DNA of 62,966 nucleotides, the filler included, from Stramenopiles sp. TOSAG23-6 (lineage: Eukaryota): the NCBI GenBank assembly GCA_900128565.1. It is 8 parts of 8 records of this genome, joined end to end, with 100 filler letters (N's around TTAATTAATTAA, not from the genome) between each part and the next. Parts side by side here need not be neighbours in the genome. Positions count along the whole stretch, not along the records: positions 11,755 to 23,382 come from LT636252.1; 7 more parts are not named here. The stretch is one strand, 5' to 3'. Under the pieces are notes generated by a model. It searched no databases. It saw nothing but the letters and a program-made list of their open reading frames with translations, and was not told where the DNA came from. Both the position numbers and the translations under genes were made by a program. Shown piece after piece: positions 6,845-60,071 of the stretch. Position 1 is the first letter of the stretch. Each line of letters opens with the position of its first letter.

Positions 6845-8262
6845 ATGCGGAAACAGCGAATTGTCCTTGCGATTCTATTTGTTCCAACATCCATCATTAT
6901 TTACGACGTTGTGAAGTGTTTTCTATCAACTAACGACAACATCTCAGCTACAAGCAACCAAAATGAACATTTAGATGTACAAATTGACGCTGTTACTGCA
7001 ACTCGACTTGGTCTGAAACATTGTCCTGTTACAGAAAGATCAGCAGTTGTAGATAAAAAAACAAAAGACCGAGGCATGATAAATAATACGTCATTCTCTC
7101 TAAATAATACTTCAGTGAACAAAAACGAAATGTGTAGAAATCCAAATCCAAAAGTACATAATATTAATAGTGCATTACTAAAAGATATTGATGCAGGAGA
7201 TTGCTTTGATGGTCTAAAAAGTGGAAATCGTGTTTGTCTTCCTATAGCTTTAATCATAGGTGCTCAAAAAAGTGGAACGACGTTTGTTTTATTTTTTTTC
7301 AATTTGGAATTTATATTTTTTCGTACGAAAATTTGTACCTAACAATTTTTAATCCAAAAAAAAAAAATATTTTTTCACAAAACATGTTTATTCAGAGTTG
7401 GTTGACCAGACATCCCCAAATGAAGTTCTCAAAAAATAACGAGATGCATTTTTTCGATTTTTTACATAAATCTTTCAAGTCTCCAAAAGGTTTATTTTTT
7501 GATAGATTTTGGGATATTAATCATTTGCCATTGAGTGAGTCATGGAAGTTGTATCTCAGTCGTCAAGAAGAATTACTTCGGTTACCCGGTACATCACCTT
7601 GGCCTACTACAGGAAAACTTTTCATGTTCGATAAAACTCCTGCATATTTTGATACTGCAGATCCTTCCGACATTTTTGAAATGATGCCATCTGTACGATT
7701 GATACTTATATTACGTCAACCTAGTACTCGCTTTCATTCATCATGGCATCATTGCTTTAGATTTAATCGTTCCTCAACAAAAAAGTGCAGTTTGCATTCG
7801 GAAACTCCAGACGGATTTTTAAAACATTTACAAGAGTCTCTTTGTGTTGATTCATCTGGTACTTTGGTAATAAATGATAATGGCATAAATATTAGTCATA
7901 AAGCCACGACAATGAGAGGACTAAAACTTGGTCAATATCATTTTTATTTAGAAAAATGGATGCAAAATAGCAAATTTATACACGAAAATTTACTTGTTTT
8001 ATTTCATAAAAATCTTATTGAAGATCCATTCACAGCAATGCGTAAAATTGAAGATCATTTAGGATTGTACCATTTTGACTATAAAGGTCTTGCTTATCGA
8101 GATAATGATGCAATGTGGCGTTTGAAACCTTCATCATATGATAATATGTATACAGGAGCAGAAAATTATGAAATCCTTTCTAAGTCGAGGGAAATTTTAG
8201 ATACATTTTATGCTGATAGCATCGAACGACTTCGAAATATTAATGGTAATGTACCGTGGTGA
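6845..8262 (+). CDS. Type II membrane sulfotransferase (heparan sulfate 3-O-sulfotransferase-like), 2 exons
   Basis: Removing intron 7282-7385 gives the PAPS-binding motif IIGAQKSGTTFIQSWLTRHP, followed by EMHFFD, FDKTPAYF and LILILRQPSTRFHS. Confidence 0.88.
7282..7385 (+). other. Non-canonical GT-AT intron interrupting the 5'-PSB motif
   Basis: ACG AC|GTTTGTTTT...CACAAAACAT|G TTT ATT gives KSGTT-FIQSWL with correct motif spacing. Confidence 0.85.
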
Positions 8263-11654: not shown

Positions 11655-11754
11655 NNNNNNNNNNNNNNNNNNNNNNNNNNNNNNNNNNNNNNNNNNNNTT
11701 AATTAATTAANNNNNNNNNNNNNNNNNNNNNNNNNNNNNNNNNNNNNNNNNNNN
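11655..11754. other. Artificial contig linker (N-run TTAATTAATTAA N-run); also at about 23383, 35088, 46789, 58474, 59972, 61470
   Basis: Identical 100-nt stop-codon spacer repeated seven times, between contigs of decreasing length. Confidence 0.97.
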
Positions 11755-12832: not shown

Positions 12833-13174
12833 TTGACACTTTCAATTTGTCAAAATATCAATCAAATAACCGAAACGAATCACGATGCTGTTATATATGC
12901 GTGATTGACAGGCACTTCTGCCGCTTTTGCCCCCAATTCCAGTAATTACCGGGTATCATATATATATTTTTTTTTTGAAAGTTGATTTTTGAGGATTTTT
13001 GAGATGATTTTCAATTTGATTGGATTGTCCGAAAAATATACAATATCTATCAAAAAATCCTCTTGTAGCAATAATATGCATGATGCACTTTTAGAATAGG
13101 AATATCTACACCATCGTTGTTTCTCTTGAGAGCCTGTGAGAATAGTTTAAAGTATTACTCTTCAATATAATCAG

Positions 13175-15790
13175 ATGACTGAAACTGGATATGAATCCAG
13201 TAGGATGCGTCGAGCCGACTCTGGTTCTGGAGGAATGAATAGTATCAGTCAAAGAACTTCACGTTTAACCTTGGATTGTCATGACGACGGTGACTATCAT
13301 ATACAATACAATGATAATTTGAACGATGTGAAACTTGACGCTGCAGAAGTCGAAAGAAATATGATGGCAACATTTTTTACTCCACAGGATCAACCTGTCT
13401 TCCAACCTAAGCTTCCTTGCTCACCGTCCCCAGCAAAGAACCGCGCTTTTTCACATAGTCCACAGTGGACTGACAACGATATGGATACAAACGTAGAAGA
13501 GGGTTCTCCAGTTGATTGGGGAATTAATGATTCGGACGAGGAACAATATATAGGTGAATCTAGTGGTGCACCTTCCCCTTTTTTGAGTGACCCCAGTCCA
13601 GGAAGCCGGGCTGCTCCATCGAAGAAAAGTCGCGTCTTTACATCTTGTGGTAAACCAAATGTAGTTGGTTTACATACTGGTCGTCCACCTCTCAAAGCTC
13701 GCAATAATACATTTCGGATCCCGGAGAAAATCAACGAGGAAGAAGAATACGATGGTGACAATGTTGGGGAGCTCCGTGGACTGAAACTTTTCGCATCTCA
13801 GCCGGATAACTCAGCTCAAGAAAATTCCTCTACTGCCTCGAATTCTGATGAAATCTTTCTACCTCCACCCCCACCTCGCCCGCCATCTATGAAATCATCC
13901 AGTAATAATTATTCAATACGCCATGTAGAAAAACGTAAAAGAGGCCATCGCTCTACGTACGAGTACGTTTTCAAAATGAAATGTAAAAATAAATTCGTAC
14001 GAAATTTTGTACCTAACAAAACATTTGAATTTTTGAAATATTTTTTCATGATACAGATCAGGTCGTAGAAATGATGTTGGATTAAATAGACATTCAAATC
14101 ATCGAATTCGTAGAGGAGCTGGTTCGTCATTAATTTCAAGTCAAGGATCTGGTTTACGCCTATATCGAGATTTTGATGCTCATAAAAGAGTTGGTACTGT
14201 AGGTCTTCATCATTAATTTAAAAAAAAACATTTCGTACGAAATTCTGTACCTAACAAAAAACAAATTCTAAAAATATTCTTTTTACAACACATGGAGCAT
14301 TTTCGACGGTTTTTCGCTGTAGGCATGTATTAGATGGTGAATATTATGCAGTGAAACAATACCTCAGACACTTCAAAAGTCGTGCAGCGCGTGCTCTAGC
14401 TCTCCGCGAAGTAAGGACCATGGCTGCTCTTTGTTCAAATGGACATCCGCATTTATTGCGTTACGCTGGTTCTTGGGAAGATATTGGCACATTGCATATT
14501 CAAACGGAGTTTTGTGATGGTGGAAGTCTACAATCTAGATTTATTAAAGCAACATTAGAAAATTCATCTCTGGGTTGTATTAGTGACAAGAACTCTAATT
14601 CGAATGCATCAACATGTATGTTTTTTTTCAATTTTGTTTCAATTTCGAATTTAGTTTTTTTTTTTCGTACGAAATTTCATACCTAACAAAATATTTTTTA
14701 CGAAAAAAAAAAATATTTTTCCACAATATATCGTTTATAAAACCTTACACCCTTGGCCGTTCTGATTCGTATCATAGATCAATGCCATCATTACCTGCTA
14801 ACACTCGAACTCAAAAATCCTTCAATACTAATAATGACGTCAATGTTGTGGATACGATTGATGTTATACCAAAATTAAATGAAGCTAATTTAGTTGTTAT
14901 TCTACAACAAATGTACGTTTTCATTTTAATTTCGAATATATTGTTTTTTTTTTTTTTGAAATTTTTTTTTTTGAAATATATTTTTTTGAAATATTTTTTC
15001 ACAACAAATGGGATCTGCGTTAGAATATATGCATAAAGTTGGCTTTGTTCACTTAGATGTAAAACCTGAAAATATTTTATTATGTAAAGCCGGAAATAGC
15101 GAACTTGGTGGTGTCTGCAAATTAGGAGACTTTGGGATGACATTGCCTGTGGAGAAGGACGGTGGTCCGTCTTCAGCTACCGCTGCTGGATTGGTCGAAG
15201 GAGATAGTCGATATTTATCAATGGAAATTCTCCAAGAAAATTACCGATGTTTACCTGCTGCTGACATGTTCGCACTTGGTGCTACTGTATATGAACTTGC
15301 CCGCATTTCAATTGGTGGTACGCCTCTACCTCAAGATGGTCCTGAATGGTCAAGTTTGCGAAGAGGTGGAAGTAATGGTGGTCCTTTTCTGCCTACAAAA
15401 TCAAACAAATCTCAAATTTTTTCAAAAGTACAATTTCCTCTTGTCAATGAAGAGAATTGTTATTCTGAGGAATTTGTTACGCTTCTTCGACTTTTAATGC
15501 ACCCAGATCCGTGTACAAGACCTACTGCAAAGCAATTATTGCAACATCCTTTGGTATTGAGCAGTATTTGCGCAAAAACGCATACAATGCCAATTTTATG
15601 TTCAGGAAGTGATGACGAAGACACCCCACGAATGAACAAAAATAAATTAGGAATGTTTTTGAGCCAACAAGTTGGGAATGACCTTGCAGGTGAAGTAAAA
15701 ATTTGGAAACAGAAGCACGAAATCTTGAAACAGCAATTGGCAGTAGAAATGGGAAAGCGTGCAGAGATGGAACATAGTCTTTTTGACTAA
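13175..15790 (+). CDS. WEE1: Wee1/Myt1-family protein kinase, 5 exons
   Basis: After removing introns 13963-14056 (GT-AG), 14199-14293, 14616-14731 and 14913-15009 (GT-AT): RLYRDF...VGTGAFSTVFRCRHVLDGEYYAVK, HIQTEFCDGGSL, VHLDVKPENI, KLGDFG, EGDSRYL, ADMFALG. Confidence 0.9.
14199..14293 (+). other. Non-canonical GT-AT intron inside the kinase glycine-rich loop
   Basis: GGT ACT|GTAGGT...CAACACAT|GGA GCA TTT TCG restores GxGxFS; there is no AG between the branch motif and the exon. Confidence 0.88.
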
Positions 15791-16059
15791 AATAATGTAG
15801 TCAATTCTACTGTAACAAAATATCGAAGTTGTTACAAGATTCTTTTTCTTTTTTTTTTGCTTCAATAAATTGATAACTGTCACGTTTACTTTCAATAATT
15901 TGGCTTCAGATTAATTAAAATAAAATAACTCTTTTACCGATAATAAAAAAAAAAGGGAAAAAGATAATTTCACAAGAAATTATATCAATTTCAATAGTTG
16001 ATATTAGTTAATAATAGTTATAGTCAAAAGTCATTTTAATAAATTTATTTTTTAATCAA

Positions 16060-17445
<1,386 letters not shown>

Positions 17446-17885
17446 TTAACAAGCTATTAAAGGTAATATTAAAGCTGGGTATATGTACTTTATAACAGAT
17501 ACGAGCTAAACTTCAATGTAAAATACTTATTATTCAGTGCGCAAAATTCAGATTCGATTTTTCGTCGTCGAGGCTCGCAGAAACTTTTAGATCTGTTTCT
17601 GTTCTTCTGAGATTCGCGAGAGATTCTCTCCACTCTGATTCAGGTTTGTTCCATTTTTTGAATGAAGTAAAAAATTTTAAACTTCACATTCTCTAAATCG
17701 TTCTTGCTAAGCAAAAAGACTTGCTTGCCTAAGATACCAAGATGGCTGATCTTTTCCCTGTTTCAGCCAGGGATATACGGTACTATCTTCGCATTGAGAA
17801 CATCGTAAAAACATTAATATTATAATAATAATAAGTAAGATACGTTCATTGAATCAAAGAATAAGCAAACACTCAGTATAAGACC

Positions 17886-20474
17886 ATGGCATCTTCTTCA
17901 CTTTGGTTCATCATTTTATTGTGTCTGATTTTTTTTGTAAAAGTTGATGCGGCGGCAAGACTACCAGATAATTCCAATGAGGAAAACATTGAGAAGCAGA
18001 CCGCAATAGACGACCTTACCAATATAGGAGCATGGGATCACGATGCAATAAATACTTGGAAGGAGAAACATGAAAAGTTCAAAAATGATTTTGATGTTAT
18101 GAGTGCAGCAGTAAAAAAAAGTCAATATTTTTTTTCCTATGCATCGGAGGCTTTAAAGAACAACGATGCTTTTGTCATGGAGGCTGTTCGTTTCAGTGAA
18201 GAACCCCCACTTGAATTTGCGGGATTAGGACCAAAAAGTAATCGCAATATTGTTTTGGCTGCTGCCATAAAGAGTCCATATGTTTTTCAATTTGCATCAC
18301 CTGATTTAAAGAAAGATAGGGATTTTGTTATGACTGTTGTACAACAAGCTGGCTGGGCACTCGAACATGCTTCCGATGAGTTGAAGAATGATCGTGACGT
18401 TGTGTTGGCTGCTGTCAAAAATAACGGAGAAGCACTCGAATGTGCTTCCGATGAGTTCAAGAAAGATCGTGAGGTTGTGTTGGCTGCTGTCAAAAATGAC
18501 GGTAATGCGTTTTATTGGGCAGATGATCAATTGAAAAAGGATGTTGATTTTGTAAAAGAGGCTTTTCTTATAGCTGGAGGTAGTGGGGGTCCTTATGCTG
18601 TCTGGGGCGGGTTAAATAAAGTTATGAAACATGAACCCCAAATTGCGCTCGCTCATGTTTCTATATCCCCACAAGATGTACTTTCCAGCATTGAGGATGC
18701 CTTAAAAGGAGAAAATTCAGATAAATATCTTGATGTTGTAAAAGTAGCGCTTAAAGTTGATAAAACGCGTCTTTTACCAATGGTGCCTGAAAACATCCTC
18801 AAGCTTCCAGAAATTCAACATATACTGAACAAGTATCAATTGCTTCATGAAGGGAATAAGATAGTTGAAACATTCATTCCTTCATCAGAATATAAGGATC
18901 AATATTTCCCAATAGCTGAGAAAGTTCTTTTGACTGTCGCAAGTTTCAACCTGTTGGATAATCCCAGTAGTAAACCTGAGCAAGATCTCAAACAGCACCT
19001 TAAAAACCATTACATTGATGTCCTTTCAGTTCAAGAAGTCGGTGAGCCTTTTGAAATAGAAGGTTATACACGTCAGGAATATTCTGATGAAGATTTGGCA
19101 ATTTATTTGAAAAACGATTCGCCATGGACTGCTGTTGCGAATAAAAACATAAAATTATTGAAAGATACATGCAACACGCGCCGTCGAGCGATTGCAATTA
19201 CTTTAAGACATTATGATGGCAATGATGTTTTCTTTGAGGATATCACTGTCACTAATATTCATTTATGTGGCGGGAAATATGATGAAGAGGTCATAGGAAC
19301 TGCAATAAAGAATGGAGAAAAAACTCTCAAAGATATTGGTGAAATGAAAAAGGGAATACTAGAAGCTGGGGTAACCGAGAACTCACAAATCATCATTGGC
19401 GACACAAACAGTGATTTGATTGATAATTCTGATGTAGTACTAGATCATATGATAAAGACAATTCAAGCAATTCTTACACCTGAGCCTGAGGCTATGGCAG
19501 ATTCTACTATTGATCATTTTCGCAACACAGATCATCTCAAAAAATTAAATTGGGATACTGATTCCATAATGTATTGGAATAATTTGCCACAAACATATCT
19601 TGAATCAAATGGTTATACTCATGCTCGATTTGAAACTTCCACTTCCCGATTCGGAGCTACTCCCGATGCTATATTTTACAAACAAAAGGAAACTATTCGA
19701 TTACAAAGCTCTGGTCGGTTAGATATGGATATGAAGGAATATGATCCAGAGAACCCAAGCAACGATCGGATGACAAAAGAAAATGGTACAGATCATGATG
19801 GTGTCTATGCAAAATTTGAAGTATCCAGAAGAAATGCGCGTTGCAGAGAGCTACATGCAAAGGATGATTCTAAAATGAAGGTTGTTGACTATTTACATTT
19901 CAATATGGCAAAAACATTGTTCTTTAATAAAATGAAGGAAGAAAATCGTCCCAAGTATCGAGTGACAAAGGTTTTGTTTTGCTCCAATTGGATGCTACAA
20001 AATAGCTTTTTGAGGAAAAAAAATCATTTTCGAGAAAAAGGATGGAGTTTTACTGAGACATGGAACTTTCATGGTACAAAGTCAATGGCTGCTGTGAATG
20101 CCATAATGGAATCTGGCTTCCAACTTCTCCCGAATAATCAGGGTGAATTTGCAAACGGTCCAAGATTTTACACTGCACCAAACCCAGAATTAAGTATTCA
20201 ATATTCTGACAAAGGCACACCTTTGCTTATTGTAAAAGCCATTAAAGGTAAAACAGTATTTGACATTGATTATGATTCAGATGAAGCAGAAAAATACAAA
20301 AACTACTTTGATCATCACAGTGATAATACATGGACTGAAAAGTCAGAGTTTCTTGATGATGATATTCCAGACAGTGTTGAGTCAATAATGAATGGTATAA
20401 TTACTCAGAATAACTTCCGTACATCTGAGCAGTTGCTTCCAGTCTATGGAGTATATTTTGAAAAGATAATGTAA
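17886..20474 (+). CDS. Secreted multidomain protein: DUF4116 repeats + EEP (endonuclease/exonuclease/phosphatase) + PARP-like ADP-ribosyltransferase
   Basis: Signal peptide; ALEHASDELKNDRDVVLAAVK repeats; EEP motifs VASFNL, SVQE, TNIHL, IIGDTN, PDAIFY, TDH; ART motifs FHGT, GPRFYTA..S.QY, QLLPVY. Confidence 0.75.
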   Translation: MASSSLWFIILLCLIFFVKVDAAARLPDNSNEENIEKQTAIDDLTNIGAWDHDAINTWKEKHEKFKNDFDVMSAAVKKSQYFFSYASEALKNNDAFVMEAVRFSEEPPLEFAGLGPKSNRNIVLAAAIKSPYVFQFASPDLKKDRDFVMTVVQQAGWALEHASDELKNDRDVVLAAVKNNGEALECASDEFKKDREVVLAAVKNDGNAFYWADDQLKKDVDFVKEAFLIAGGSGGPYAVWGGLNKVMKHEPQIALAHVSISPQDVLSSIEDALKGENSDKYLDVVKVALKVDKTRLLPMVPENILKLPEIQHILNKYQLLHEGNKIVETFIPSSEYKDQYFPIAEKVLLTVASFNLLDNPSSKPEQDLKQHLKNHYIDVLSVQEVGEPFEIEGYTRQEYSDEDLAIYLKNDSPWTAVANKNIKLLKDTCNTRRRAIAITLRHYDGNDVFFEDITVTNIHLCGGKYDEEVIGTAIKNGEKTLKDIGEMKKGILEAGVTENSQIIIGDTNSDLIDNSDVVLDHMIKTIQAILTPEPEAMADSTIDHFRNTDHLKKLNWDTDSIMYWNNLPQTYLESNGYTHARFETSTSRFGATPDAIFYKQKETIRLQSSGRLDMDMKEYDPENPSNDRMTKENGTDHDGVYAKFEVSRRNARCRELHAKDDSKMKVVDYLHFNMAKTLFFNKMKEENRPKYRVTKVLFCSNWMLQNSFLRKKNHFREKGWSFTETWNFHGTKSMAAVNAIMESGFQLLPNNQGEFANGPRFYTAPNPELSIQYSDKGTPLLIVKAIKGKTVFDIDYDSDEAEKYKNYFDHHSDNTWTEKSEFLDDDIPDSVESIMNGIITQNNFRTSEQLLPVYGVYFEKIM

Positions 20475-21120
20475 GACACTAATAATGAATGCTTTAATAC
20501 CACTTTGTGCTGATGGGGAACTGTGTGGACAGCGTAGGATATATGTAGTGATGAATAAAGTTTGAGAGATTTTTTTTTTTATTATTATTTTAAGTATTTT
20601 AAATGTTTTTCAAACTTACAAATTTACAACATCAAAAAAGAACATTCAATTTATCGTTTCATTTGGTTCCTTTGTCGGCCGAGGTGACTGATTACGGCGA
20701 TTTTTCGATTTTTTGTTTGAATTACCTCTTGAGTAGTATTCAACTTATCGATGGAATGGTACAAAAAATAGTACAAAAGTAGTACAAAAAAAATAAAGGA
20801 GGGGTGACAGATTCGGGCTATAGCAGTTATGATGATGAAGATGAGTATTATAGTGAAAGTGATGATGATATAGAAAATCGGTATATAAAGATCTCGACAA
20901 AGATTGCAATAAAGAAATAAAATCATTTGTGTTTTTTATTATAAGAAACACCCTATTTGCCCAGGATATTAATTAAGTGTATTGACACGATCCGTACCAA
21001 TATTTTGAATGCATTTTGAATTCGTGTTTTTGTACCTTTTCCTTTTTTTTTTTTAATCGGTCAGAGGCGGCCAAAGGAAAGGAAAGAAATAATTCCTTTG
21101 TGTACTAATTTGAAATTAGA

Positions 21121-23382
21121 ATGCAAGACGGTGATAATGTGTCGAAATCAAATCATCCCAGCGACAGTTGTTTGTTGCAATCTATAGATGCTTGTCTGCG
21201 CCTTGTTTCGTCTGGTACTAAAGAAAAAAGCAGTCATCAGTCTTTAGATTCAAAGCAGAAGATCTTGAGAGATTTATTCCAATCACTACAAGACTCCATC
21301 TCTCGAACTGCTGTAACAAATGATTATGGAGTAATGAGTTCAGTACCTCGCATATTAACCGTAATTATGGAAGACGAAACACTCTGTGCATTATCCCTCG
21401 ATTCTGGCGCTTTGGTGTCCTGTCTACTTCAATTTGTTACACTTCGAATACCGCAAGAACGCACGAACGATGGAGTAAAGGTGAAGTCCGTTAATGTACC
21501 TCGTCATCAACTAGTTGAACGAGGGCGCACTTGGGCATTATCAGTTCTCAAAACATTGCTTTCGTCTGAAAGAAGTACACAAAAACATCATCGCGAGTTG
21601 ATACAGAGGCCAGAATTTCCAGTTGGTGTTCAGCCTTTATTCGATTCTGTCTTTATTCAGAATGCTGTACACGCTTTAGTTGGTCAAATTGAGTATTTAA
21701 GACAAGAAACAGATACAATTGAAGCTGTGAAAGCTTTTCAACTAATCGTAAACGAATCAATTCCAATTCTGAGGTTAAGTTTCCATGTTCGTTTTCATCA
21801 TGAATTTCCATTTTTTTTTACTATAAAAATTTTGTACCTAACGATTTTTTTTTTTTCGGTAAAAAAAAAAAAAAAAACATTTTTTACAAAACATATTCGA
21901 ACGTACGAAAGGAATATATGGGAAAGTATATCAACTTTAATAGACACTATATTTCTATGGCATCCGAACCCTAACCCTAGAGATAAGAATGTACCTATTA
22001 CAAAAAGTTGGCTTTCTGATGACATTTTTTGTATTTATTTATATTTATCGTGTATGTTTTATTTTTTTTCAAATTCGATTTTTTTTCGTACGCAATTTTG
22101 TACCTAACGATTTTTTTTTTGAAATATTTTTACAAAATACATTGTCTTGGTTTCAACTTGGAATCTTATTATCTTTGGCATCAATTCAACGTTTTTCAGA
22201 TAAAGTTTTGAATCATTTAACACATAGAGTGTTAAAGTATCACCAACAAGTAAAGCAGTTGCAAGAAAGTCCATGCACGTTTTCATCATTCATTTCAATT
22301 TATATTTTATAATTATTTTTATACGAAATGTTGTACCTAACGATTTTTTTTCTAAAATATTATTTCACTTTACTTGGAACCGCATTGAATCAAAGCGAGT
22401 TCGTGAAGCACTATTTCATGATTCTACAAGTAGTAGTAGTAGTAGTAGTAGTAGTAGCAGCAGTGGCAATACCACTGAGAAAAATCAAAATCCAGAAAAA
22501 GATGAAAAATCAAATAGCAATTTTCATATAGGAATGAATATGGCTACAGAATCTGAGTCTGTTGATATAGAAGCATTAATACTACAAACTATTGAGCATA
22601 GTGCCCATGGCTGGGAGCATATCACACCTTCATTACTTCAATTAGCGGTACGACTTTTAGATATGACTGCGAAAACGTCGAGCTTTTCTATCAAGCAAAG
22701 ATCAAAAACATCAAATATAATATTGCCAGTTGATGTCCTCAATCGAACGAATTCAATGAATCACAAGAGTATAGATGCAAAAGAACTTGCGGTTTGTACT
22801 GGGTTTCGCATATTATTTTCTTTGATTCGCGTTCAAAAAGTTGTACGTTCTAGCATTCTCGAACATATATTGACACGTGTCATGTCACGAGCACCAACAG
22901 TTCGTCAATATATCGCATTACTAAAAGCTATTGCATTAGATACACCAATACTATTACTACCATTTTCTCAAAGAGTGAAAGAAAGTTTAGAATATTGTCC
23001 TTTACTTCCCTCCAGCGTTGCGAGTTTGCTGATTATTGCAGTTGAACCTGTTGTTTGCCTTCGTCCGGACCTTCGTGATTATACAGCAGTTATATTACGT
23101 AAAGCAATGTTTAAAAGAGACCCAGGTGCTCGTATTGTTGCAGTGGAAGGAATGATACGTCTTCTTGTACAATTAGAAAATCAAAGAAATTCAAATGAAA
23201 TGGAACGAAAAGCAGCGCAATTACGGTTTTGGTGTCAAATCTCTGGTTTATTCCGCCGGGTCCTTGGTCAACAATATAGTGTTAGAGAATCACTATATAC
23301 TGGTTTAGTACAGGTATATGAAAAAATCCCAGCTGTACGCCATGAAATTTTATCTTTATTGTTACCGCATGTTCAAAATTAT
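21121..23382 (+). CDS. FANCI: Fanconi anemia group I protein, 5' part, multi-exon
   Basis: HSAHGWEHITPSLLQLAVRLLD, LRKAMFKRDPGARIVAVEG and FRRVLGQQYSVRESLYTG resemble FANCI solenoid motifs. Introns 21787-21894, 22052-22142 (GT-AT) and 22275-22375 (GC-TT). Confidence 0.75.
22275..22375 (+). other. Non-canonical GC-TT intron
   Basis: CCA T|GCACGTTTT...TGTACCTAAC...CACTTTACTT|GG AAC joins two ORFs in phase 1. The acceptor register is taken from alignment to the family consensus. Confidence 0.6.
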
Positions 23383-23544
23383 NNNNNNNNNNNNNNNNNN
23401 NNNNNNNNNNNNNNNNNNNNNNNNNNTTAATTAATTAANNNNNNNNNNNNNNNNNNNNNNNNNNNNNNNNNNNNNNNNNNNNTTTTTTTTCGTACGAAAT
23501 TTTGTACCTAACAAATTTCGAATTTAATTTTTTTTACACTACAT

Positions 23545-25555: not shown

Positions 25556-26389
25556 TTATTTCTTACTTGTTGTATTTAATATATCCATAACAGAACGAAC
25601 TCGTTTTGAACTCTCTCTACAACACTGTTTCCATTGAGCATCATCTAAACCAGGGCCACCAGGTTTGTGTACAGCACAGATATGCCCGAGTGAGTTGCGA
25701 ACTATAGTGACTTTGGAATTTCCAAATAATTTTTCTTCCTTACCTGACAGATCAATAATAATTTTGTCATCAAATCGGCCAAAAGTTGACGAAATTGGTA
25801 TATGTTTAATAGTCAATGGTGTTGATGTACCATTTGGTGTCATTACGATACATCCTGTTTCTTTATCTAATTCAACGCAAGGAATTCGTGTATTGCGCAA
25901 TGCGGCTAAAGATGCAAGTAATGCACAGTCTTCAACGTTACCATCATGGTTTAAACACAACACATCAAGACGAATAATCCATGAATGCTTTCCCTTATTG
26001 ATACACAACGATTTCAAATCAATAGCCTCAGTACTTGAAATGCTTCGGGTAATAAACTGTGATAGAGTAATAGCTTCCTCTGGGGACGCACCTAACGTAA
26101 AGCGCTCAGCACAAATTGGCCACAACTGCACTTGAACATCAATTTCACCCTGATCCGCTGCATCCTGCTTTGGTTGTATAATTTCAAGTTTTACACCAGC
26201 GACTACTGCAGTATTCCCGATGTATGCTAATGCAGAACCATCTGCTGTTGATATTGAACCTTCACTGACAGAAATGTGACGAACGTCCAAGAGATTTCTT
26301 CCATCCGGTCTGACACTCTTCTCCACAAAACGACGATAAAACTTTTCTGGGTATATCCGTTGAAATGCAGCTACACTCTCACATGCCAT
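25556..26389 (-). CDS. EXOSC8: Exosome complex component RRP43 (RNase PH family)
   Basis: FQRIYPEKFYRRF...RPDGR...GSISTADGSAL, DLKSLCI..GK.SW, LNHDGN, HKPGG. Confidence 0.9.
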   Translation of the reverse strand: MACESVAAFQRIYPEKFYRRFVEKSVRPDGRNLLDVRHISVSEGSISTADGSALAYIGNTAVVAGVKLEIIQPKQDAADQGEIDVQVQLWPICAERFTLGASPEEAITLSQFITRSISSTEAIDLKSLCINKGKHSWIIRLDVLCLNHDGNVEDCALLASLAALRNTRIPCVELDKETGCIVMTPNGTSTPLTIKHIPISSTFGRFDDKIIIDLSGKEEKLFGNSKVTIVRNSLGHICAVHKPGGPGLDDAQWKQCCRESSKRVRSVMDILNTTSKK

Positions 26390-27087
26390 TTCAAGTATGC
26401 TTGTGAGTAATCTACAATAATAATAATAATATCTAAATTGTTTATAGTATAGTACAACTTGTACTTATCACAAAAACGACGTACTTACTATAAGTTACTT
26501 CTTCACTATATTATTGATTGCATTGATCATCTCTCACCAAAATTTTCTACTGACTCATTTTTGAAGCATTTTTGAAAAACAAACAAACATTTTTCAATGA
26601 TTTCTGTGGAGTTGGAACCCGGTAACAGTAACAAATTCAACAATGATAATTAACAATGATAATTTAGTATTTCTGGTAATAGTAATTACATATATGGTAT
26701 AGTAGTAGGAACTATAGATAGGCCAAAAGGTGGCGGAAAACGACATGGAAAGCAAATCAGACAATGCTTTGAACATCAACAAAGATGACGTTTTTTATCA
26801 GAATTTGTCAGACTTAGACTAGACATCCATAATTTGTGCATGGAATTGCTAAACTAGGCAACACAAACACACTTTGTCAATTTAAACTTTATTTTTATTA
26901 AATCAATATAATATCTTTGATATAATCACTTAATTTCTTATAATATACATGTTTAAGATGAAGATTAACTAAGTTATTTAGTTCATTTTTGTTTAGTACA
27001 TAAATGTACGCTCGTCGGGCTCCTTTATACTTTTCGAAAATTCCTTCACCATATATTGGAACTTTCTTAGTTATTTTGTTTTGAATC

Positions 27088-35027: not shown

Positions 35028-35275
35028 GTATGTTTTATTTTTTTTTTTTACAAAAAAATCGAATTTTTTTTTCGTACGAAATTTTGTNNNNNNNNNNNNN
35101 NNNNNNNNNNNNNNNNNNNNNNNNNNNNNNNTTAATTAATTAANNNNNNNNNNNNNNNNNNNNNNNNNNNNNNNNNNNNNNNNNNNNAATATTTCAAAAA
35201 AAAAAACTAAAATTTGTTAGGTACAAAATTTCGTACGAAAAAATAAATAAATTCAAAATTGAAATGAAAACGTAC

Positions 35276-40714: not shown

Positions 40715-41164
40715 GAGGTCAAAAGTTGGAATTTAGTTAATGGTTCTAACTACTATCATTTCTAAAAATTCTTAACTTTGAAATCATAAGAAATCAAAGG
40801 ATAAAAACACCTAAATTTCCCAACCAAAACTACCTTTGTCTCAACGTCAACAGACTCTGATCTTCCGTTTGCATCCAATCCCAGCACTCTGTACTGTGAA
40901 AATATTTTTGGTAGTAGTACGTAGCATAACTACTACGATATATATAAACGTTACTTTTAACGGACGACGATAGGATTTTTGACAAATTTTATTTGCGCGC
41001 GCACTTATTTGTTGAATTCAGTATTTTGTCGTTTCGTGTTCGTCAAAAAAAAATCAAATGTTATTTTTTTTGCTTTTCGGTCAAACGAAGAAAGACATGA
41101 AAAGGACATCAGAAAGACATTAATTATAGTATTGAAACACTGGCGGAGGAATGTGCTAATTGAA

Positions 41165-42259
41165 ATGTCTAAGGTCATTATACTAATATTAGCAATACTA
41201 GTATGTTGTTGTCCCTCGACTGTTTGTGCGGAGGTTGACAAAGTAATGCGTCTCGAATTTGTTCACAAGTATATTGTCGAAGGGCTGAGTTGCAAAATGA
41301 TTGCCTCTTTGTTTCCTCATATATGCTCGTTAAGAACGGTGCAGAGAATAATTAATCATTACTATGCGTATGGTGACGTTAAAGTTCGCAAAGACAAGCC
41401 GGAGACGCGGCAATCCAGCTTTGATAATGACCACTGGCCGACGTTAGTTAAAATAATAGACGAAAACCCAAGGATTTATCTTGATGAAATTCAATGTGAG
41501 CTAAGGAAGAGAGTTGGTTTCCTCTATAGTGCCTCCGTAATAGAACGGAAAATGTTGGAAAATAATATCACGTGGAGACTGCTACAACAACGCGCAAGTC
41601 AACGCGATGAGGACGAGCGCCGCGCTTTTCTTGGTATGATACAAACCTTTGACCCCCGCTGTTTTATTTTCCTAGATGAAAGTCACTTCGATTCGAAAGA
41701 GGTTCGAAGACGAAGAGGAAGAGGATTTTGTAACAGACCCGTCAGTGTAAGTGTGCCTCTAGGCCGGGGACAGTCATATAGTTTATTAGGTGCAATGAAT
41801 ATGAATGGTTTCGTCACATCAGCTTGCGATCTGGTACCGGATAGAGGTGTAGATGCCGAACGATGTGTTCAATGGCTTGAAGAGAAAGTAATCCCAGTGC
41901 TTCAGCCTTATAATCCTTTTGAGCCTAATCCAAACAGCATTTTAATATTAGATAATGCGGCAATTCACCATGACAATCGCGTTAGAGGGCTCATTGAGGC
42001 AACTGGCGCATTGATAAGGTATTTACCTCCTTACTCGCCGGATTTTAATCCTATTGAGTCTTGTTTTCACAATTTGAAAATGTTGCTAAGGCGAAACGAG
42101 ACTTTAGCTATTGCATATCCTCTATTTGCTTGTGCAATGGGTATCGAAAAGATAACTCTAGCACAAGCACGAGCTTCCTTCAGACATTGTGGATATAATG
42201 TTCCAACAACAGAAAGTGATGAACAAATATTATTAGCATTAGCATTGATGCTGCTTTAA
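41165..42259 (+). CDS. DD34E transposase (IS630/Tc1, DDE_3) with N-terminal HTH domains
   Basis: FIFLDES, LILDNAAIH and LPPYSPDFNPIE, with 34 residues between the second D and E; SLRTVQRI and IYLDEIQ HTH-like segments. Confidence 0.92.
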   Translation: MSKVIILILAILVCCCPSTVCAEVDKVMRLEFVHKYIVEGLSCKMIASLFPHICSLRTVQRIINHYYAYGDVKVRKDKPETRQSSFDNDHWPTLVKIIDENPRIYLDEIQCELRKRVGFLYSASVIERKMLENNITWRLLQQRASQRDEDERRAFLGMIQTFDPRCFIFLDESHFDSKEVRRRRGRGFCNRPVSVSVPLGRGQSYSLLGAMNMNGFVTSACDLVPDRGVDAERCVQWLEEKVIPVLQPYNPFEPNPNSILILDNAAIHHDNRVRGLIEATGALIRYLPPYSPDFNPIESCFHNLKMLLRRNETLAIAYPLFACAMGIEKITLAQARASFRHCGYNVPTTESDEQILLALALMLL

Positions 42260-45582: not shown

Positions 45583-46573
45583 ATGTGTAAGAAAATGCAA
45601 GAAGTCAAAGTCGGTTGTGAGTCGAAGAATGTACAGCATGCGAATCGTCGAAGGATGCTGCTTAGGCGAAAAGAAGCCGAGGAGAAGTATGTCCGAAGAA
45701 TGGAACTTGGCCGTGATGATGCGAATCCGCCACCACGTAAATTAGCTGTTCAACCTCGTGATCCGCTCTGTCCTGTTTCGCCGTTGAAATCTGTTAAGCA
45801 ATTCGTTGATCGCATGAAAAAAGCCAAGTCTAAAATGTATGTTTTAATTTTCAATTTCGAATTTGTTTTTCGTACGAAATTTTGTACCTAACAAATTTTA
45901 GTGTTTTTTTTTGAAATATTTTTCCAAAATACATCCCAACAAAGATAGACTTTTCGGATAAGCGCGTACGATTAAAATTGCATAACCGTTACGTGCGTAA
46001 GAAAAAGAGAGCGGCTATGGCTAAAGCATGTTCTCGACAGAGAATATCAGCGCGCAAAAACGAGCTTGATTCTCTCAGGATGTTTTATTTTTTTTAATTT
46101 CGAATTTATTTTTTCGTACGGAATTTTGTACCTAACAAAAAAACGAAAACAAAAATATTTTTTCACAATATATGGGCAATGATGCAGGCCAGAGTGGCTG
46201 ATGCTTTAGCTGCTGAGTTGGCAGAAGAAGAAGCTCAAACAACTCACAACGAAGCAGAAAAAAGCTCAGCAAATGTCAAAGCTTGTGCTCTGATGAGAAT
46301 CTCGGAGCGCAGAGATGAGCTTGATTCGCTCAGGATGTTTTATTTTTTTAATTTCGAATTTATTTTTTTTTTTAATTTCGAATTTATTTTTTCGTACGGA
46401 ATTTTGTACCTAACAAAAAAACAAAAACAAAAATATTTTTTCACAATATATGGGCAATGATGCAGGTCAGACTGGCTGCTGCTATTGATGCTGGTTTGGA
46501 CGAAGAAGATGCCAAAACAACTCACGACGAAGCCTTTCTACTGGCTCAGCAATACCAAAAGGTGTTTGCTTGA
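45583..46573 (+). CDS. Hypothetical basic/coiled-coil protein, 4 coding exons with a duplicated exon-intron unit
   Basis: Frame is continuous after introns 45837-45934 (GT-AT), 46078-46173 and 46333-46451 (GG-AT); a probable 5'-UTR GT-AG intron lies at 45364-45560. Confidence 0.7.
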
Positions 46574-46654: not shown

Positions 46655-46888
46655 CCGTTTCCTTTTTCCTTTTTTTTCTACAATGGATTTGTTTTATAGT
46701 TGTGATATTGTTGATTTTGTTTGGAGTATTTTATACGTATGGGTGGTGATGATGTGATGTTTATTTGTGGTGATGATGTGATGTTTATNNNNNNNNNNNN
46801 NNNNNNNNNNNNNNNNNNNNNNNNNNNNNNNNTTAATTAATTAANNNNNNNNNNNNNNNNNNNNNNNNNNNNNNNNNNNNNNNNNNNN

Positions 46889-49246
46889 AAAAATATTTCA
46901 AAAAAAAATCGTTAGGTACGAAATTTCGTATGAAAAAAAAAATCAAATTAGAAATTCATATAAAACATACGTGCACTCGGCAAAGATATTTCCTCACTTT
47001 TAGAATTTATTTTCCCTTTCTTCTCTGGATCTTTCTTTTCACTTTTGATTGATCCAATTTTACCAAACGAATATTTCCCTCGAGAGGGAGAAATTGGTGG
47101 GCAGATTGGTTGTGTATCTTTTGGTGGTGCATGTGTTTGCTTTCTAGCTTTTGGTGGTGCATGTGTTTGTTTTGTAGCTTTTGGTGGTGCATGTGTTTGT
47201 TTTGTAGCTCCAAATGATGTATATGTTGCTTTTGGACTCCTATATGCGCCTTTCTGATCATAAAATTTCTTACGAGCCAAAGGTGATTCGCCAGTGTCTC
47301 GTATGTTTTGTTGAAACGTTTGTTTAGGCTTTGTTTTCTCTGCCGAAATGTCGTGAACGGAAGAATTATCAACTGTTTTGGGTGGCTTACCTGGTTTCCC
47401 TATCTCAGATTTTTCTCTCTGTTCAAATTTCTGCCTTGGATTTCCCTTTGTATTTTCTTCCATCGACGAATCACCTCTTACTTTCTTTTGCTTTCTATGT
47501 TTTTTATCTTTTTTCAACATTTGTTGTTTTCTTTTATTTTGCTGTTTCCATTCCATTTTAGCCCTAGATACATTTAATTTCGTTACATGTGTGGCAGCAG
47601 CCGCAATAGCGGCAGCTTCACTACCAAAAGTAAGCATGGCTAAGTCATATGCAGCTCCAATAGAAGATCCTGCAAGCATTGCTAAATCACCATAGCGCCT
47701 CATTCGTGCTAACCTTGACACTGCAATGCGTGATGCGCTGAGTCTTCGTTTCCATGAAGACAATGCCACCCCAACAGCAGCTAGAGCGTCATTCTTTTCA
47801 GGGGTATTGGACCGTACTCTAGCTAGACGTTGCTGTTGAGACATTAACTTCTTTACTCTTTTTTGTATTGGCAGAGTGTGTTGTTCTAAGGCCCTTAAAA
47901 AGATGGGTCGAGTTTCTAAAGACAATCCTGCGATTACTTGTTGGACAACTTCGGGATATGGAATCGCCTGACCATCCTGCATCGTCAGGTTTAAAGATAT
48001 ATATTACCTATATATCTATCTATCTATCTAGACATTAGGGTAATGCGAACACGCTTTAGAAATGTGCATCTTTCATTCTGAAAAACATTTAAAGCTTACT
48101 AGCTACTACTGAGCGGCTACGTAAGTTGTTTTTTCAAATACAGTTACAAAATAGTACTAAGTAGTCGTTTTTGTCAGAACTCGAATTCAACTCGAACTGA
48201 AACTATTACGTTCAGGTACTCGTGGTTTAAGATCAGTACCTACTATTTCGTAGTTTTCTGTTTGTATTCTATATAGATATGTCTTCTGCTTTAAGTTGTT
48301 TCGACGCCAGTGATTCAAGTGATTATTTGACTAGTGATGAAGATTGTATAGATGAAATTACAGAGTCAAAACGTCAGTATGATGTTCTCAAGTCACGCAT
48401 GTTTGGTCCAGCATTTAAGGAAGGTATGGATGCTTCAGTTGATGCAGCAGTTCAACCTGGATTTAACGCTGCATATCGTGAAGCTATACCTGAAGCAGTT
48501 GTACGTGGCCGTCGCCTCGGATATGCTAGTATTCTTTCTTCATTCTACGACAAGCATAAAGATTTGTGTGATCCGGAAATGTTACTGAAACTTCGTAGTT
48601 TTCGTGATGCTTCGTATGCTGAGGCCAGCAACCTACCTAGTCCGTCACTTTCCGAGTGGGATGGCCAAACAGGTACATGGAAAGTGAATGTCGCAAATAA
48701 CCCTACTGTCGCTAATACCGACCTAGAAAATCCAAATAATGATAATGTCATAGCTTCAAATAAAGCTCAAAGTGAGCAAAAGTTAATTATAACTAGTTTG
48801 AATTTAACAATAGAGCCAATAGAACCAATAGCACTTTCTGATTCGACAGTAATACGTTCGACACCTATAGAAAATACAACGCATATAGATATCGAACATA
48901 CAAATAAATCCATCGATTCGATTGAATATGGACCTGATGGAAAGTCCCTTCTTGTTGGTTCCAAAACTGATTATGCTCCAGTTTTACCTTCTGGCTTGTT
49001 GCTATTTGGTAATGTAAAAACGGCACGAAATTGGCCTCTGATGCAACAACTACAGATCGATGCAGTAGTCAATCTAATAAAATATAAAACAAACAAGAAA
49101 AATAAGTCAGAGAATAAACCATTATTTGCAGATCGTTTATCTGGTGGGTTGTTACACTGTCCAATTGAAGATAAGCCTAATACAGGAATGTCTTGGGCTG
49201 AAAATGTTTCAAAATTTATTGATGAAAAGTTAAAAAATAATCAGAG
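46889..49246. repeat. Left arm of a 2358-bp inverted duplication (partner 56116-58473)
   Basis: Identical ORFs in mirror positions; paired coordinates sum to 105362. Confidence 0.95.
46971..47982 (-). CDS. Hypothetical protein with KATKQTHAPP repeats, first exon (copy 1)
   Basis: ORF ends at the family intron donor at 46970; identical to 57380-58391. Confidence 0.65.
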
Positions 49247-49349
49247 TACTTATTCCTCGAGGATGGAAAATCTATGGAATGTAAAGAGGGAAAATCTATG
49301 GAATGTAAAGAAGGAAAATCTATGGAATTCAAACGTATTGGATTATTAA
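48279..49349 (+). pseudogene. Truncated copy of the Yae1-like/dual-specificity phosphatase gene
   Basis: Identical to 57083-56116 but broken at 49246, just before the HCxxGxSR catalytic motif; possibly an assembly or amplification chimera. Confidence 0.7.
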
Positions 49350-51031: not shown

Positions 51032-51400
51032 TTGTGTTAGTTCTGTAACTTATATATTTTTGTATATACTGGATCTACTGGATCTACAGTAACAACCCAT
51101 TTCATGTTATATTTACATTACAAGTTTAAAAACTTATCATAAATAAATGAAACTATTATATGTAAAAACAAGGAATTTGTATTAATTTATTTATTTTTTT
51201 ATTATTTTTCATCCTCCATTTTCGGATTTCGTGCTTTTTGCGTATGCGAAATTCCCGGAATATATATTCGGATTCTTTACGTTACTTTTTCACAATGCTT
51301 CGTACGTTTTTTTTCAATCGAAATCTCTACAGATCTTGACTGTATCCTTCTTACACCTGAACTTCTTTTTCACACCACATCTAACAGCATTATCAACACA

Positions 51401-53287
51401 ATGGCTATCAATCGATATTCTGCGCTAATTATCTTACTCACTTATGTATTGAATGTTGCAAAAAACAGTGTTGCACTGAGCACACCAACATTATCTCCTG
51501 GTGCAGTCATACGTGAATATACACTCGTCAAACAACTTTACCCGCATCATCAAACGAAACGTTCTGAGAAGCTCATTGGTTTTGACACTCATGACTCACT
51601 GGGAATCAACAAACAACAAAACGCATTGCGGTTCAAGCAACAAATACTCCAAACGCAGGTACCACAAGAAAACGAAAATATCATGGACATTGGAGGACGG
51701 TCCAGAGGCACAGCTAAATACAAAATAAATAATGGATCTTATGGCGAAGCTTGGCTTGTAAAAAAAGATGACGAGAAGTTTGTAATGAAGTTTATATTGG
51801 ACAAACATGCGCAAAAGAAAGACATTCAAAGATCAAGCAACAAAGAAATAGAAGCTCACAAAAAGGCAAAGAATTGTCTTCATGTTGCACAAATGAGAGA
51901 TTCATTTGAATATGAAAGGGGAGGAAATGTTATCGTCATGGATTACTACAATCAAGCAGACCTATCGGGTTTCTTCACGAAATCAGTGGAAGTTATGGAC
52001 GATTTGATTTTACAGCACAGGCTCAGCAAAGGTCGTCAAGACAATCGTCAACCATTTGGAATACAGACGGCTGAAGTTATCTTGGGGATAGTAAAAGATG
52101 TTGAGAATGGATTAAAATGTCTACATAACCTTGGACTAGTACATTTAGATTTAAAACATGAAAATATATTTGTGAAAGAAACAACTCGAGAAGATGGATC
52201 ATTTAAATACACTGGCTATGTTGGCGATCTTGGAAAGGTAACAGCAGTAGGTGGCACCATAGGGAAAACTACTATAGAATTCGCCAGTCCTGAACTATTT
52301 TTGCGTCGTCGTGTCACAGGAAAGAGCGATGTATTTAGTCTAGCTTCCGTCATTGCTGAACTCACTCGTACATTATCATTGGAGATATCCTGTTTTGATA
52401 GACAGCAGGAAATGCAAAAAAAGTGCACAGAGACTAGTGGGCATGGCTACTGGGGAGGGAACTTTTTTAGACTTATTGAGGGGCTGAATGAAATGCCTTC
52501 GATTCAGAATTACCCTTTATTGAATCAACTCGCTGAGAAGAATTTTTGCAATCGTTTGGCTAATAATTTCAGCCTGAATCCAAACAATAGGCAATATTTC
52601 TGGAATGAGGATGTACGGTACCGAACACCAACGCCAATTGTTTTATCTGCTGATCTGCCATATAAAGCAGCTAACAATCAAGCTAAATCTGATACGGGGA
52701 ATCCAAACAATAGGCAACATTTCTGGAATGAGGATGTACGGTACCGAACACCAACGCCAATTGGTTTATCTGATGAAATGGACGAAGCAGCTAAGAATGA
52801 AGCTAAATCTGATACGGGTCCCGCAGGACGCGTCGACAGCGCTCTCGCAGTTCACATCCGCCCACAAGCTCGCACAGTGGCTCGTGCAGCTGAACAGCCC
52901 CATCGGAGCGTGCGAGAGCGCGCGGGGCCTGCGCAACGAAGCCGAGGACGCCTTCCGCCGCCTGATGCAGTTGATCCTGTTGATGATGGTGATGATGATG
53001 GTGGTGCTTATGATGGTGCTTATGCTGCTGCTTATGCTGCTGCTTATGCTGCTGCTTTTGGTGGTGATGATGGTGGTACCGGTGATAGTGGTAGTCCTCC
53101 AACGCCACCTGATGCATCTGCAATAATGGAGGTAAAAACTAATAATGCTCAACCGCTGCCATCTGAGCTCCAGGATTATCTCCCTGAAAGACGACGTTCA
53201 AAATTTTACGATGCATTTTCTTATGATCACCCCGAATACCTTCAGAATGAGTACTTCAGGGCTGGCGTAGAACACAAGGATCCTTAA
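51401..53287 (+). CDS. Secreted Ser/Thr protein kinase, copy 1
   Basis: Signal-like N-terminus; GSYGE, VMK, HLDLKHEN, GDLG, ASPE, KSDVFSL. Confidence 0.85.
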   Translation: MAINRYSALIILLTYVLNVAKNSVALSTPTLSPGAVIREYTLVKQLYPHHQTKRSEKLIGFDTHDSLGINKQQNALRFKQQILQTQVPQENENIMDIGGRSRGTAKYKINNGSYGEAWLVKKDDEKFVMKFILDKHAQKKDIQRSSNKEIEAHKKAKNCLHVAQMRDSFEYERGGNVIVMDYYNQADLSGFFTKSVEVMDDLILQHRLSKGRQDNRQPFGIQTAEVILGIVKDVENGLKCLHNLGLVHLDLKHENIFVKETTREDGSFKYTGYVGDLGKVTAVGGTIGKTTIEFASPELFLRRRVTGKSDVFSLASVIAELTRTLSLEISCFDRQQEMQKKCTETSGHGYWGGNFFRLIEGLNEMPSIQNYPLLNQLAEKNFCNRLANNFSLNPNNRQYFWNEDVRYRTPTPIVLSADLPYKAANNQAKSDTGNPNNRQHFWNEDVRYRTPTPIGLSDEMDEAAKNEAKSDTGPAGRVDSALAVHIRPQARTVARAAEQPHRSVRERAGPAQRSRGRLPPPDAVDPVDDGDDDGGAYDGAYAAAYAAAYAAAFGGDDGGTGDSGSPPTPPDASAIMEVKTNNAQPLPSELQDYLPERRRSKFYDAFSYDHPEYLQNEYFRAGVEHKDP

Positions 53288-53845
53288 TAGGAAAACCCGT
53301 GGTGGCAGCAGGATAAACACTGATAGATCTATGTATCATCTATTAGGTTTGAATTCTTTTTTTAAATCATCCAAATTTTGGTAATTTTTCTTTGATTTTT
53401 AGTCCTCTTCAGTTGCATTTGCCGACAAAAATTCTGATTTTTGTTTATTATTTTTAGATTACATTACATTATATGATAGTATAAGTAAGGATAGATTAGG
53501 ACTTTGTCTGAACTATAGTCTTGTGATTGTATAATAAAAATGAATTACTATAATATGATGTTGGATCTAGATTCATGCTAGCTATATTTCAAACTTAAAC
53601 CTACCAAAAATAAGTTATAATACAGACAGACACGAAAACAAAAACGTCATCTCCATTTTCGGATTTCGTGCTTTTTGCGTTATTCATGCTATATGCGAAA
53701 TTCCCGGAATATTCGGATTCTTTACGTTACTTTTTCACAATGCTTCGTACGTTTTTTTTCAATCGAAATCTCTACAGATCTTGACTGTATCCTTCTTACA
53801 CCTGAACTTCTTTTTCACACCACATCTAACAGCATTATCAACACA

Positions 53846-58473: not shown

Positions 58474-58573
58474 NNNNNNNNNNNNNNNNNNNNNNNNNNN
58501 NNNNNNNNNNNNNNNNNTTAATTAATTAANNNNNNNNNNNNNNNNNNNNNNNNNNNNNNNNNNNNNNNNNNNN

Positions 58574-58912: not shown

Positions 58913-59206
58913 TGTGCCTAGATCTCACTTCAACAAGGCAGGTAAAACTACTACGTGAAAATCTTTTACGTATACAATGTCTTCAATAATAGGGTAATTT
59001 TATTTGTTATATTTCCCTTTGAGATCTCGGTTTTTAGGTTTTTTGCGAATAAAATTTTTCAATATTATATTGAGGCTTGTTAGTTAGGTTTAGTTAGGGT
59101 TAGGGTTTCCATTCAGTCTCATCTCGCATGTTGAACAAACAAGTCCACTTTATTTTTTATTTACAGGTCAACTTCGCAAATTTCACTATTTCTCAAGACC
59201 TCGTAT

Positions 59207-59919: not shown

Positions 59920-60071
59920 GTATGTTTTATTTTTTTTCAATTTCGAATTTATTTTTCGTACGAAATTTTGTNNNNNNNNNNNNNNNNNNNNNNNNNNNNN
60001 NNNNNNNNNNNNNNNTTAATTAATTAANNNNNNNNNNNNNNNNNNNNNNNNNNNNNNNNNNNNNNNNNNNN

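Follow-up and report, generated by a model that had tools for sequence, protein, structure and literature searches.

We analyzed a stretch of 62,966 nucleotides (nt) of joined sequence from Stramenopiles sp. TOSAG23-6 (GCA_900128565.1), here called the window; all coordinates are positions in it. At its center of interest is a Wee1-like kinase gene on the plus strand at 13175-15790, the second intron of which begins with GT and ends with AT. The window is eukaryotic DNA with a G+C content of 22-41%. The public sequencing runs containing the stretch are seawater metagenomes and metatranscriptomes, and the source organism appears to be a MAST-3-like marine stramenopile, as read from the label of a protein in EukProt (GSMAST32...).

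The Wee1-like gene has five exons and, when spliced with three GT-AT introns, gives a model of 735 codons free of stops. The Pkinase profile matched exon 3 at 7.4e-11 over its positions 10-90 and exon 5 at 8.1e-23 over its positions 109-262. The closest solved relatives of exon 3 were human Wee2 (1.2e-13) and human Wee1 (2.5e-10), while those of exon 5 were Wee1-like chains (2.7e-23), Wee2 (2.4e-20), and Myt1 (2e-16), with the next family at 4e-9. Judged by these similarities, the gene is a member of the Cdk-inhibitory Wee1/Myt1 family, the kinases of which act on Tyr15 of Cdk1. It has the same Pkinase domain as that family, with human Wee1 and Wee2 and then Myt1 as the nearest solved members. 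What sets it apart is an N-terminal exon that is long and not conserved, together with an insert separating the two lobes.

Intron 2 (GTAGGT...CAACACAT) splits the glycine-rich, ATP-binding loop of the kinase between VGT and GAFSTVFRC. Exon 2 ends with ...CAT AAA AGA GTT GGT ACT, and exon 3 starts with GGA GCA TTT TCG ACG GTT TTT CGC TGT. The sole AG in the intron lies at 14201-14202 (gtAGgt), and there is none 3' of the branch-like motif TACCTAAC. The first AG past the intron, at 14296-14297, is within GGA GCA; its use would start the exon at 14298 and break the frame. In-frame ends of the intron were computed as 14293, 14296, 14299, and so on. Three YAG sites follow within 58 nt (14322, 14333, and 14351), all of them out of frame. 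A preliminary description of this stretch had placed a 95-nt insert beginning GTAGGT between VGT and GAFSTVFRC, had found no AG after its branch motif, and had held that the first downstream AG, in GGA GCA, shifts the frame. All of this is borne out, with the insert at 14199-14293. Its count of one GT-AG and three GT-AT introns in the gene is also right, with two boundaries corrected: intron 3 ends at 14731 because an end at 14729 breaks the frame, and intron 1 may begin at 13957 or 13963, both donors being in frame.

Moving intron 2 by one base to the left (TG-CA) or to the right (TA-TG) leaves the mRNA identical to that of the GT-AT register. With a shift of two bases to the left (CT-AC), the loop would read GNG. 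The two leftward registers had been correctly described before, and the rightward one had gone unmentioned. Intron 4 is flanked by a 10-nt direct repeat, ACAACAAATG, across both junctions (14903-14913 and 15000-15010), so that at least nine registers yield the same mRNA.

The sole relative found with exon 3 as a query was a public protein model, P0001, which is 71% identical. HKRVGT/GAFSTVFRC aligned with HKRIGTGGFSVCFRC of P0001 (IGTGGF/IGTGGFS) without a gap at the junction, and P0001 has the threonine that the GT-AT register predicts in the loop. The junction of intron 4, ILQQM/GSALEYMH, was likewise gap-free against ILRQVGSALQYVH (RQVGSAL). All five Wee1 exons are open and colinear with P0001. 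The P0001 gene model, 1245 amino acids (aa) long, joins a leucine-rich repeat stretch, a PfkB sugar kinase, and the Wee1 orthologue, and is probably a merged prediction of neighbouring genes. Exon 2 as a query of the protein collection returned no candidate, and hence no RNA-derived peptide across the junction. A scan of metagenome contigs with exon 3 gave two weak loci, one of which (L001) was rejected as a relative because it lies on a high-GC contig with long bacterial-type open reading frames (ORFs).

To follow the intron in RNA and DNA, assembled contigs from three RNA runs and one DNA run were aligned to positions 12900-22400. Two RNA contigs, from two poly-A metatranscriptome samples of the same study (runs X7 and X10), cover 14057-14197. 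X7 record 18 (222 nt, no differences) carries 35 and 46 extra letters at its ends, and X10 record 2 (188 nt, one difference) carries 13 and 34. At position 14323, the total depth of X7 (6.1) equals that of record 19 (3.6) plus that of record 18 (2.5). At the same position, the sole X10 contig has the depth of record 2 (4.6) and is 4 letters from the contig end, which matches the 34 letters of record 2 when these are placed from 14293. From these depths and end distances, it follows that both RNA contigs bridge exon 2 and exon 3, with tails that start from 14293/14294 and a skip of 95 nt. Both contigs keep C14197, which excludes the CT-AC register, where an A would stand at this place. Both exon-2 pieces also begin right after the AG of intron 1, and therefore introns with both kinds of ending, AG and AT, were lost from one RNA molecule.

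An independent DNA metagenome contig, X3 record 10, covers 14180-14664 with intron 2 present. It differs from the genome by four letters (14229, 14289, 14323, and 14482) and one gap (14220), all located elsewhere, so that the GT and AT of the intron are intact. At 14289, this contig has T for C, by which the tail becomes AATACAT, the consensus of the intron family described below. The removal of intron 2 from RNA between T14198 and G14294, as an intron that begins with GT and ends with AT, is confirmed. The preliminary description had claimed that the AT acceptor is used in the GT-AT register, giving GTG, and this is supported by the RNA contigs, by the orthologue P0001, and by the in-frame CAT tails of the family. 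Its further claim that AG and AT acceptors are handled in one pre-mRNA fits as well, since the exon-2 piece of X7 record 18 spans from the AG of intron 1 to the donor of intron 2. The parts of the gene are listed in Table 1.

Table 1 Exons, introns, and intron 2 motifs of the Wee1-like kinase gene.
Feature	Positions	Strand	Basis
Exon 1, ATG at 13175	13175..13962, end 13956 or 13962	+	ORF, spliced model; both donors in frame
Intron 1, GT-AG, family member	13963..14056, alternative donor 13957	+	RNA contig pieces start at 14057
Exon 2, ends ...HKRVGT	14057..14198	+	X7 record 18 and X10 record 2 on 14057-14197
Intron 2 (the finding), 95 nt, GTAGGT...CACAT, GT-AT	14199..14293	+	Skipped in RNA contigs, kept in DNA contig X3 record 10
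Palindrome TTCGTACGAA, core of intron 2	14232..14241	+	16 window copies vs 0.06 expected
Branch-like motif TACCTAAC, 3' A 39 nt before end of intron 2	14248..14255	+	Predicted branch
T-run and ACAACACAT tail of intron 2; terminal AT at 14292-14293	14280..14293	+	Sequence, family alignment A1
Exon 3, begins GAFSTVFRC, kinase N-lobe	14294..14615	+	Pkinase profile; nearest solved Wee1, Wee2
Intron 3, GT-AT, 116 nt, ends at second AT of ATATAT	14616..14731	+	Reading frame
Exon 4, variable insert of kinase domain	14732..14912	+	Spliced model, orthologue alignment
Intron 4, GT-AT, ends AAT, core decayed to T-runs	14913..15009	+	Junction colinear with P0001
Exon 5, kinase C-lobe and tail, stop TAA at 15788-15790	15010..15790	+	Pkinase profile; nearest solved Wee1-like

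The AT ending is not a peculiarity of the Wee1 gene but the common form of a repeated intron family, a wider scope that the earlier reading had missed. All four Wee1 introns belong to this family, which has the layout GTATGTTTT ... TTCGTACGAA ... TACCTAAC ... T-run ... AYAT. The family consensus has AT before the intron; the intron itself reads GTATGTTTT, a T-run, TTCGTACGAAATTTTG, TACCTAAC, about 20 nt, GAAATA, a second T-run, and (C)CA.AAYAT, and is followed by G. In the window, the palindrome TTCGTACGAA was observed 16 times against 0.06 expected, and TACCTAACAAAA with at most one mismatch 22 times against 0.86 expected; the frequency of the family motifs is far beyond chance. The contexts of TACCTAAC showed the same architecture across many genes and on both strands.

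To delimit the copies, donors were set by similarity to GTATGTTTT, and ends of the form Y-A-T or Y-A-G were tested for whether they left one shared reading frame open across flanks of 90 nt. Of the 13 CAT tails elsewhere in the window, 12 were in frame, for which we calculated a chance probability of about 2e-5 if p = 1/3, and the same was true of all three CAG/TAG tails. In total, 23 copies were delimited, 22 seeded on the branch-like motif and one, the motif-less intron 4 of the Wee1 gene, taken from the gene model. They are spread over at least 10 genes of the 63-kb window. The 3' end is AT in 20 copies and AG in three, and the 5' end is GT in 20, GC in two, and GG in one. An A stands at -2 in all 23 copies and a pyrimidine at -3 in 22. 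In 16 of the 23, the donor is directly preceded by AT (dinucleotide background 9.7%). The distance from CTAAC to the 3' end is 23-53 nt in 20 copies and 91 nt in one, and CTAAC is absent in two. The consensus alignment A1 holds 18 copies, including all four Wee1 introns (intron 4 without the core, and intron 1 with its AG end), and G+1 and the A at -2 are invariant in it.

A tandem pair at 46078/46325 was checked by hand, and its first member alone was counted among the 23. Here, at 46026-46451, an exon and its family intron are tandemly duplicated; both donors are GG and the ends are ATATAT (GG-AT is equal to AT-GG), with the frame kept. Three family introns interrupt a gene for a FANCI-like protein upstream of 22366-23382 (plus strand). 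A queuine tRNA-ribosyltransferase-like gene (59135-59971, plus strand) ends in an intron at a contig break. For the sulfotransferase gene intron at 7282-7385, the Pfam match on the flanking exons stops short of the junction. Scanning the window for strong donors without the branch-like motif gave mostly chance sites and no further clear introns, and an exact scan of the genome-contig and viral-contig collections with the 24-nt intron core gave no matches. At least nine of the 14 internal contig ends fall within a family copy, a pattern that high-copy repeats are expected to leave in assemblies of short reads. The X3 word depths, which were 541 to 26,973 in intron-core bins against 3-24 in unique bins and are not a copy number, also fit a high-copy repeat.

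We then considered which spliceosome acts on the family. The donor is GTRNGT-like (GTAGGT in intron 2 and the yeast-like GTATGT in the family motif GTATGTTTT). A TACTAAC-like motif, the candidate branch, lies about 40 nt before the 3' end and is followed by a T-run before the tail. The terminal AG of U2-type introns is lacking in intron 2 and in 20 of the 23 copies. Because of the yeast-like donor, the position of the TACTAAC-like motif, the T-run, and the Y-A-K acceptor, we infer that the family introns are removed by the major, U2-type spliceosome.

GT-AT is a known rare ending of U12-type introns, and U12-type 3' sites tolerate several end dinucleotides. The signals of these introns are RTATCCTT at the 5' end, with the consensus GTATCCTTT, and a branch motif, TCCTTAAC, that stands some 10-20 nt ahead of the 3' end. 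It is unlikely that the minor, U12-type spliceosome removes the family introns by way of shifted signals. Such removal would agree with the length of the conserved 5' motif GTATGTTTT, which matches the U12 consensus at seven of nine positions, with the strong conservation of the internal motif among copies, and with the variation of the last intron base between T and G. However, not one of the 23 donors has ATCC at +3 to +6, the spacing between CTAAC and the intron end is 23-91 nt rather than the 10-20 nt of the U12 branch motif, and the acceptor follows a T-run, a feature of U2-type introns. An Rfam search of the window gave no matches and thus no small nuclear RNA to compare. A structure-guided choice of the 3' site was rejected, as RNA folds of six copies had no conserved helix joining the ends (z-scores -1.89, 0.09, 0.21, -2.80, -0.35, and -1.12). 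A small hairpin, GUACGA/UUGUAC, stands before the branch-like motif in the minimum-energy folds of three of the six copies, in one of them in a 5-bp form.

It is very unlikely that the insert goes unspliced in this strain, as a disabling transposon or in a pseudogene, and that the joined RNA comes from related strains free of the insert. Introner-like elements are described as often polymorphic between strains (Gozashti et al. 2022, PMC9860276), and unspliced forms do occur in the RNA libraries (X8 record 28 and X7 record 20). Against this, the exon-2 piece of one RNA contig ends at intron 1 on one side and at intron 2 on the other without a single difference over 141 nt, all five exons are open and colinear with the orthologue, and 12 of 13 CAT-tailed and three of three CAG/TAG-tailed copies elsewhere in the window are in frame.

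Placing the true register two bases to the left would make most copies AT-AC introns (ATGTATG...ATAC) and the Wee1 copy a CT-AC intron with a GNG loop. We regard this as highly improbable, even though 16 of the 23 copies have AT before GT and end in ..AYAT, so that for them the mRNA is identical under AT-AC and GT-AT. Both RNA contigs agree with the genomic sequence up to and including C14197, where this register would read A, and P0001 has T in the loop, not N. In addition, 7 of the 23 copies would start with AC, GA, CT, GT, GG, or CA, and the three AG-ending copies share the tail and fit the unshifted register alone. Excision of the inserts from DNA, in the manner of ciliate internal eliminated sequences with short direct repeats, has next to no probability: the inserts are short, AT-rich, and bordered on either side by an AT repeat, and their inverted ends are short, but DNA metagenome contigs (X3 records 9-11) carry exon and intron contiguously, the donor, branch-like, and T-run signals are in sense orientation alone, and TAA serves as a stop codon.

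Several points weigh against a GT-AT intron of a spreading family. GT-AT, TG-CA, and TA-TG cannot be told apart at this site, as they give the same mRNA. The joint 14197>14293 is reconstructed from depths and end distances and is absent among the joints listed, which are 15 of 226 and all lie between repeated intron cores. The RNA support consists of assembled contigs with depths of 2.5-4.6 from two samples of one study, and the RNA libraries also contain an unspliced intron 2 (X8 record 28) and a contig that extends 19 nt into intron 4 (X7 record 20). Spliced RNA for introns 3 and 4 was not seen among the joints listed, and parts of the gene without RNA cover are uninformative. The frame is broken by one CAT tail, at 34223, and kept by a TAT two bases later (34225). 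An insertion-site preference without duplication would equally account for the frequent AT before the donor, and the terminal inverted repeat amounts to GTAT/ATAC with T- and A-runs. Finally, the sample comprises 23 introns, all from draft contigs in a single 63-kb window.

Weighing the evidence, we give a probability of roughly 0.8 to the reading that 14199-14293 is a genuine spliceosomal GT-AT intron and a copy of a high-copy introner-like family, a reading that includes U2-type removal and the spread of an element with an AT target. The ends of the copies, GTAT...ATAC, are reverse complements extended by a T-run and an A-run, and most copies have AT at their flanks. Such ends may belong to a small DNA element that spread by duplicating or preferring an AT target. 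If the spliced segment ran from the GT of the element through the downstream AT, the reading frame would be recovered exactly. The AT repeat is identical in all copies, and therefore a duplication is not provable by within-copy matching; by our own reading, a third matching base stands beside the AT in 5 of 12 copies. The window also holds an ORF of 432 codons for a DDE_3 transposase (IS630/Tc1-mariner type) at 40961-42256 on the plus strand, and no terminal or inverted repeats resembling the intron ends were found around it.

In the proposed mechanism, the acceptor would be Y-A-K, in which Y at -3 and A at -2 are retained and the last base is T (20/23) or G (3/23). The machinery of 3'-site recognition and of the second step would have to accept an intron whose last base is U instead of G. 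Altered U2AF-type factors, suggested by the case of Fritillaria, would be the first candidates for this acceptance of AT. On a larger scale, we see even odds that most spliceosomal introns of the lineage are GT-AT, that one AT-duplicating introner family flooded its genes, and that the major spliceosome shifted from YAG to YAK. A likely route of this shift would be changed U2AF1-type recognition together with changed second-step proofreading, in which G+1 faces U at the last intron position.

The window holds further genes and structures. Its eight contigs are chained by N44-TTAATTAATTAA-N44 linkers at 11655-11754, 23383-23482, 35088-35187, 46789-46888, 58474-58573, 59972-60071, and 61470-61569. 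One contig has perfectly complementary terminal arms of 2,363 nt (46889-49251 and 56111-58473), which look like an amplification or an assembly chimera. A dual-specificity phosphatase gene is whole in the continuation of one arm (55593-57131, 513 aa); the version in the other arm (48231-49349) departs from it after about 340 aa. Tandem paralogous protein kinase genes at 51143-53284 and 53621-55510 (plus strand) have repeated NPNNRQYFWNEDVRYRTPTP units and Ala/Pro/Gly-rich tails. A gene for an RNase PH exosome subunit lies on the minus strand at 25559-26464. An intact 461-codon ORF on the minus strand (16063-17445) encodes a MYST histone acetyltransferase, and an atlas search confirmed a MYST acetyltransferase. 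P0002 (EukProt, GSMAST32...), the one public model compared, is identical to this ORF minus three blocks, one of which includes ...ISIKDIS; the missing blocks are probably false introns in the public annotation.

The U12-type GT-AT and U2-type AT-AC introns show that spliceosomes can use a last base other than G. Such introns are a handful per genome and have ATCC donors, whereas here GT-AT is the majority and the signals are U2-like. Introners have been described in Micromonas, Aureococcus, Chrysochromulina, Symbiodinium, Polarella, and others, and are presented as typical of marine protists; the element contributes one splice site, a duplicated target may contribute the other, and splicing restores the mRNA (PMC11282704; PMC9860276). 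The family described here resembles them in consisting of many near-identical short introns in unrelated genes and in sense orientation (PMC11282704; PMC9860276). It differs in its acceptor, as the introner families described in the text available from these sources have GT, GC, or GA donors and AG acceptors, whereas AT ends 20 of 23 copies here. The putative duplication also spans just 2 nt and is identical in all copies.

In the tunicate Fritillaria borealis, non-canonical introns derived from miniature inverted-repeat transposable elements (AG-AC, AG-AT) are described, with which the major spliceosome copes via changed 3'-site factors, namely U2AF paralogues (PMC11282704; PMC13326754). As in the family here, the 3' end there is related to a motif in the exon ahead of the intron. 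Both ends of the Fritillaria introns are described as non-canonical and diverse, whereas here the donor is a strong canonical GTATGT and only the last base is changed; in place of the AG... 5' end of the Fritillaria type, GT was found in 20 of 23 copies. Amoebophrya, a group of parasitic dinoflagellates, is reported to have more than 60% non-canonical repeated introns, which carry duplications and have inverted ends (PMC11282704). Their borders are described as highly variable and their U1 small nuclear RNA is reported missing, whereas the borders here are uniform and the donor looks U1-compatible. A literature search on the intron motif returned unrelated papers only. The main texts of three MAST genome papers (PMC5778133, PMC12614181, and PMC8163842) do not mention splice sites; their supplements could hold intron statistics. 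In the literature searched for GT-AT introns, we found sporadic cases only and no genome dominated by them. Within the theme of introners and non-canonical introns, what is new here is a canonical donor paired in most copies with an AT acceptor.

Few signals of eukaryotic genes are as constant as the AG at the end of introns. To our knowledge, the mass departures from AG (Fritillaria, Amoebophrya, and euglenids) alter both ends or use other mechanisms. A family with a canonical donor and a last base that is mostly T and in a few copies G isolates one variable of 3'-site choice in nature. This makes several questions testable: how U2AF1 and the second step read the last base, whether a 2-nt duplication can be a source of acceptors, and how fast a spliceosome adapts to an invader. 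Gene prediction based on GT-AG would break or mis-splice genes in an abundant lineage of ocean grazers. If most introns of this organism are indeed GT-AT, its public GT-AG gene models would be wrong at large scale.

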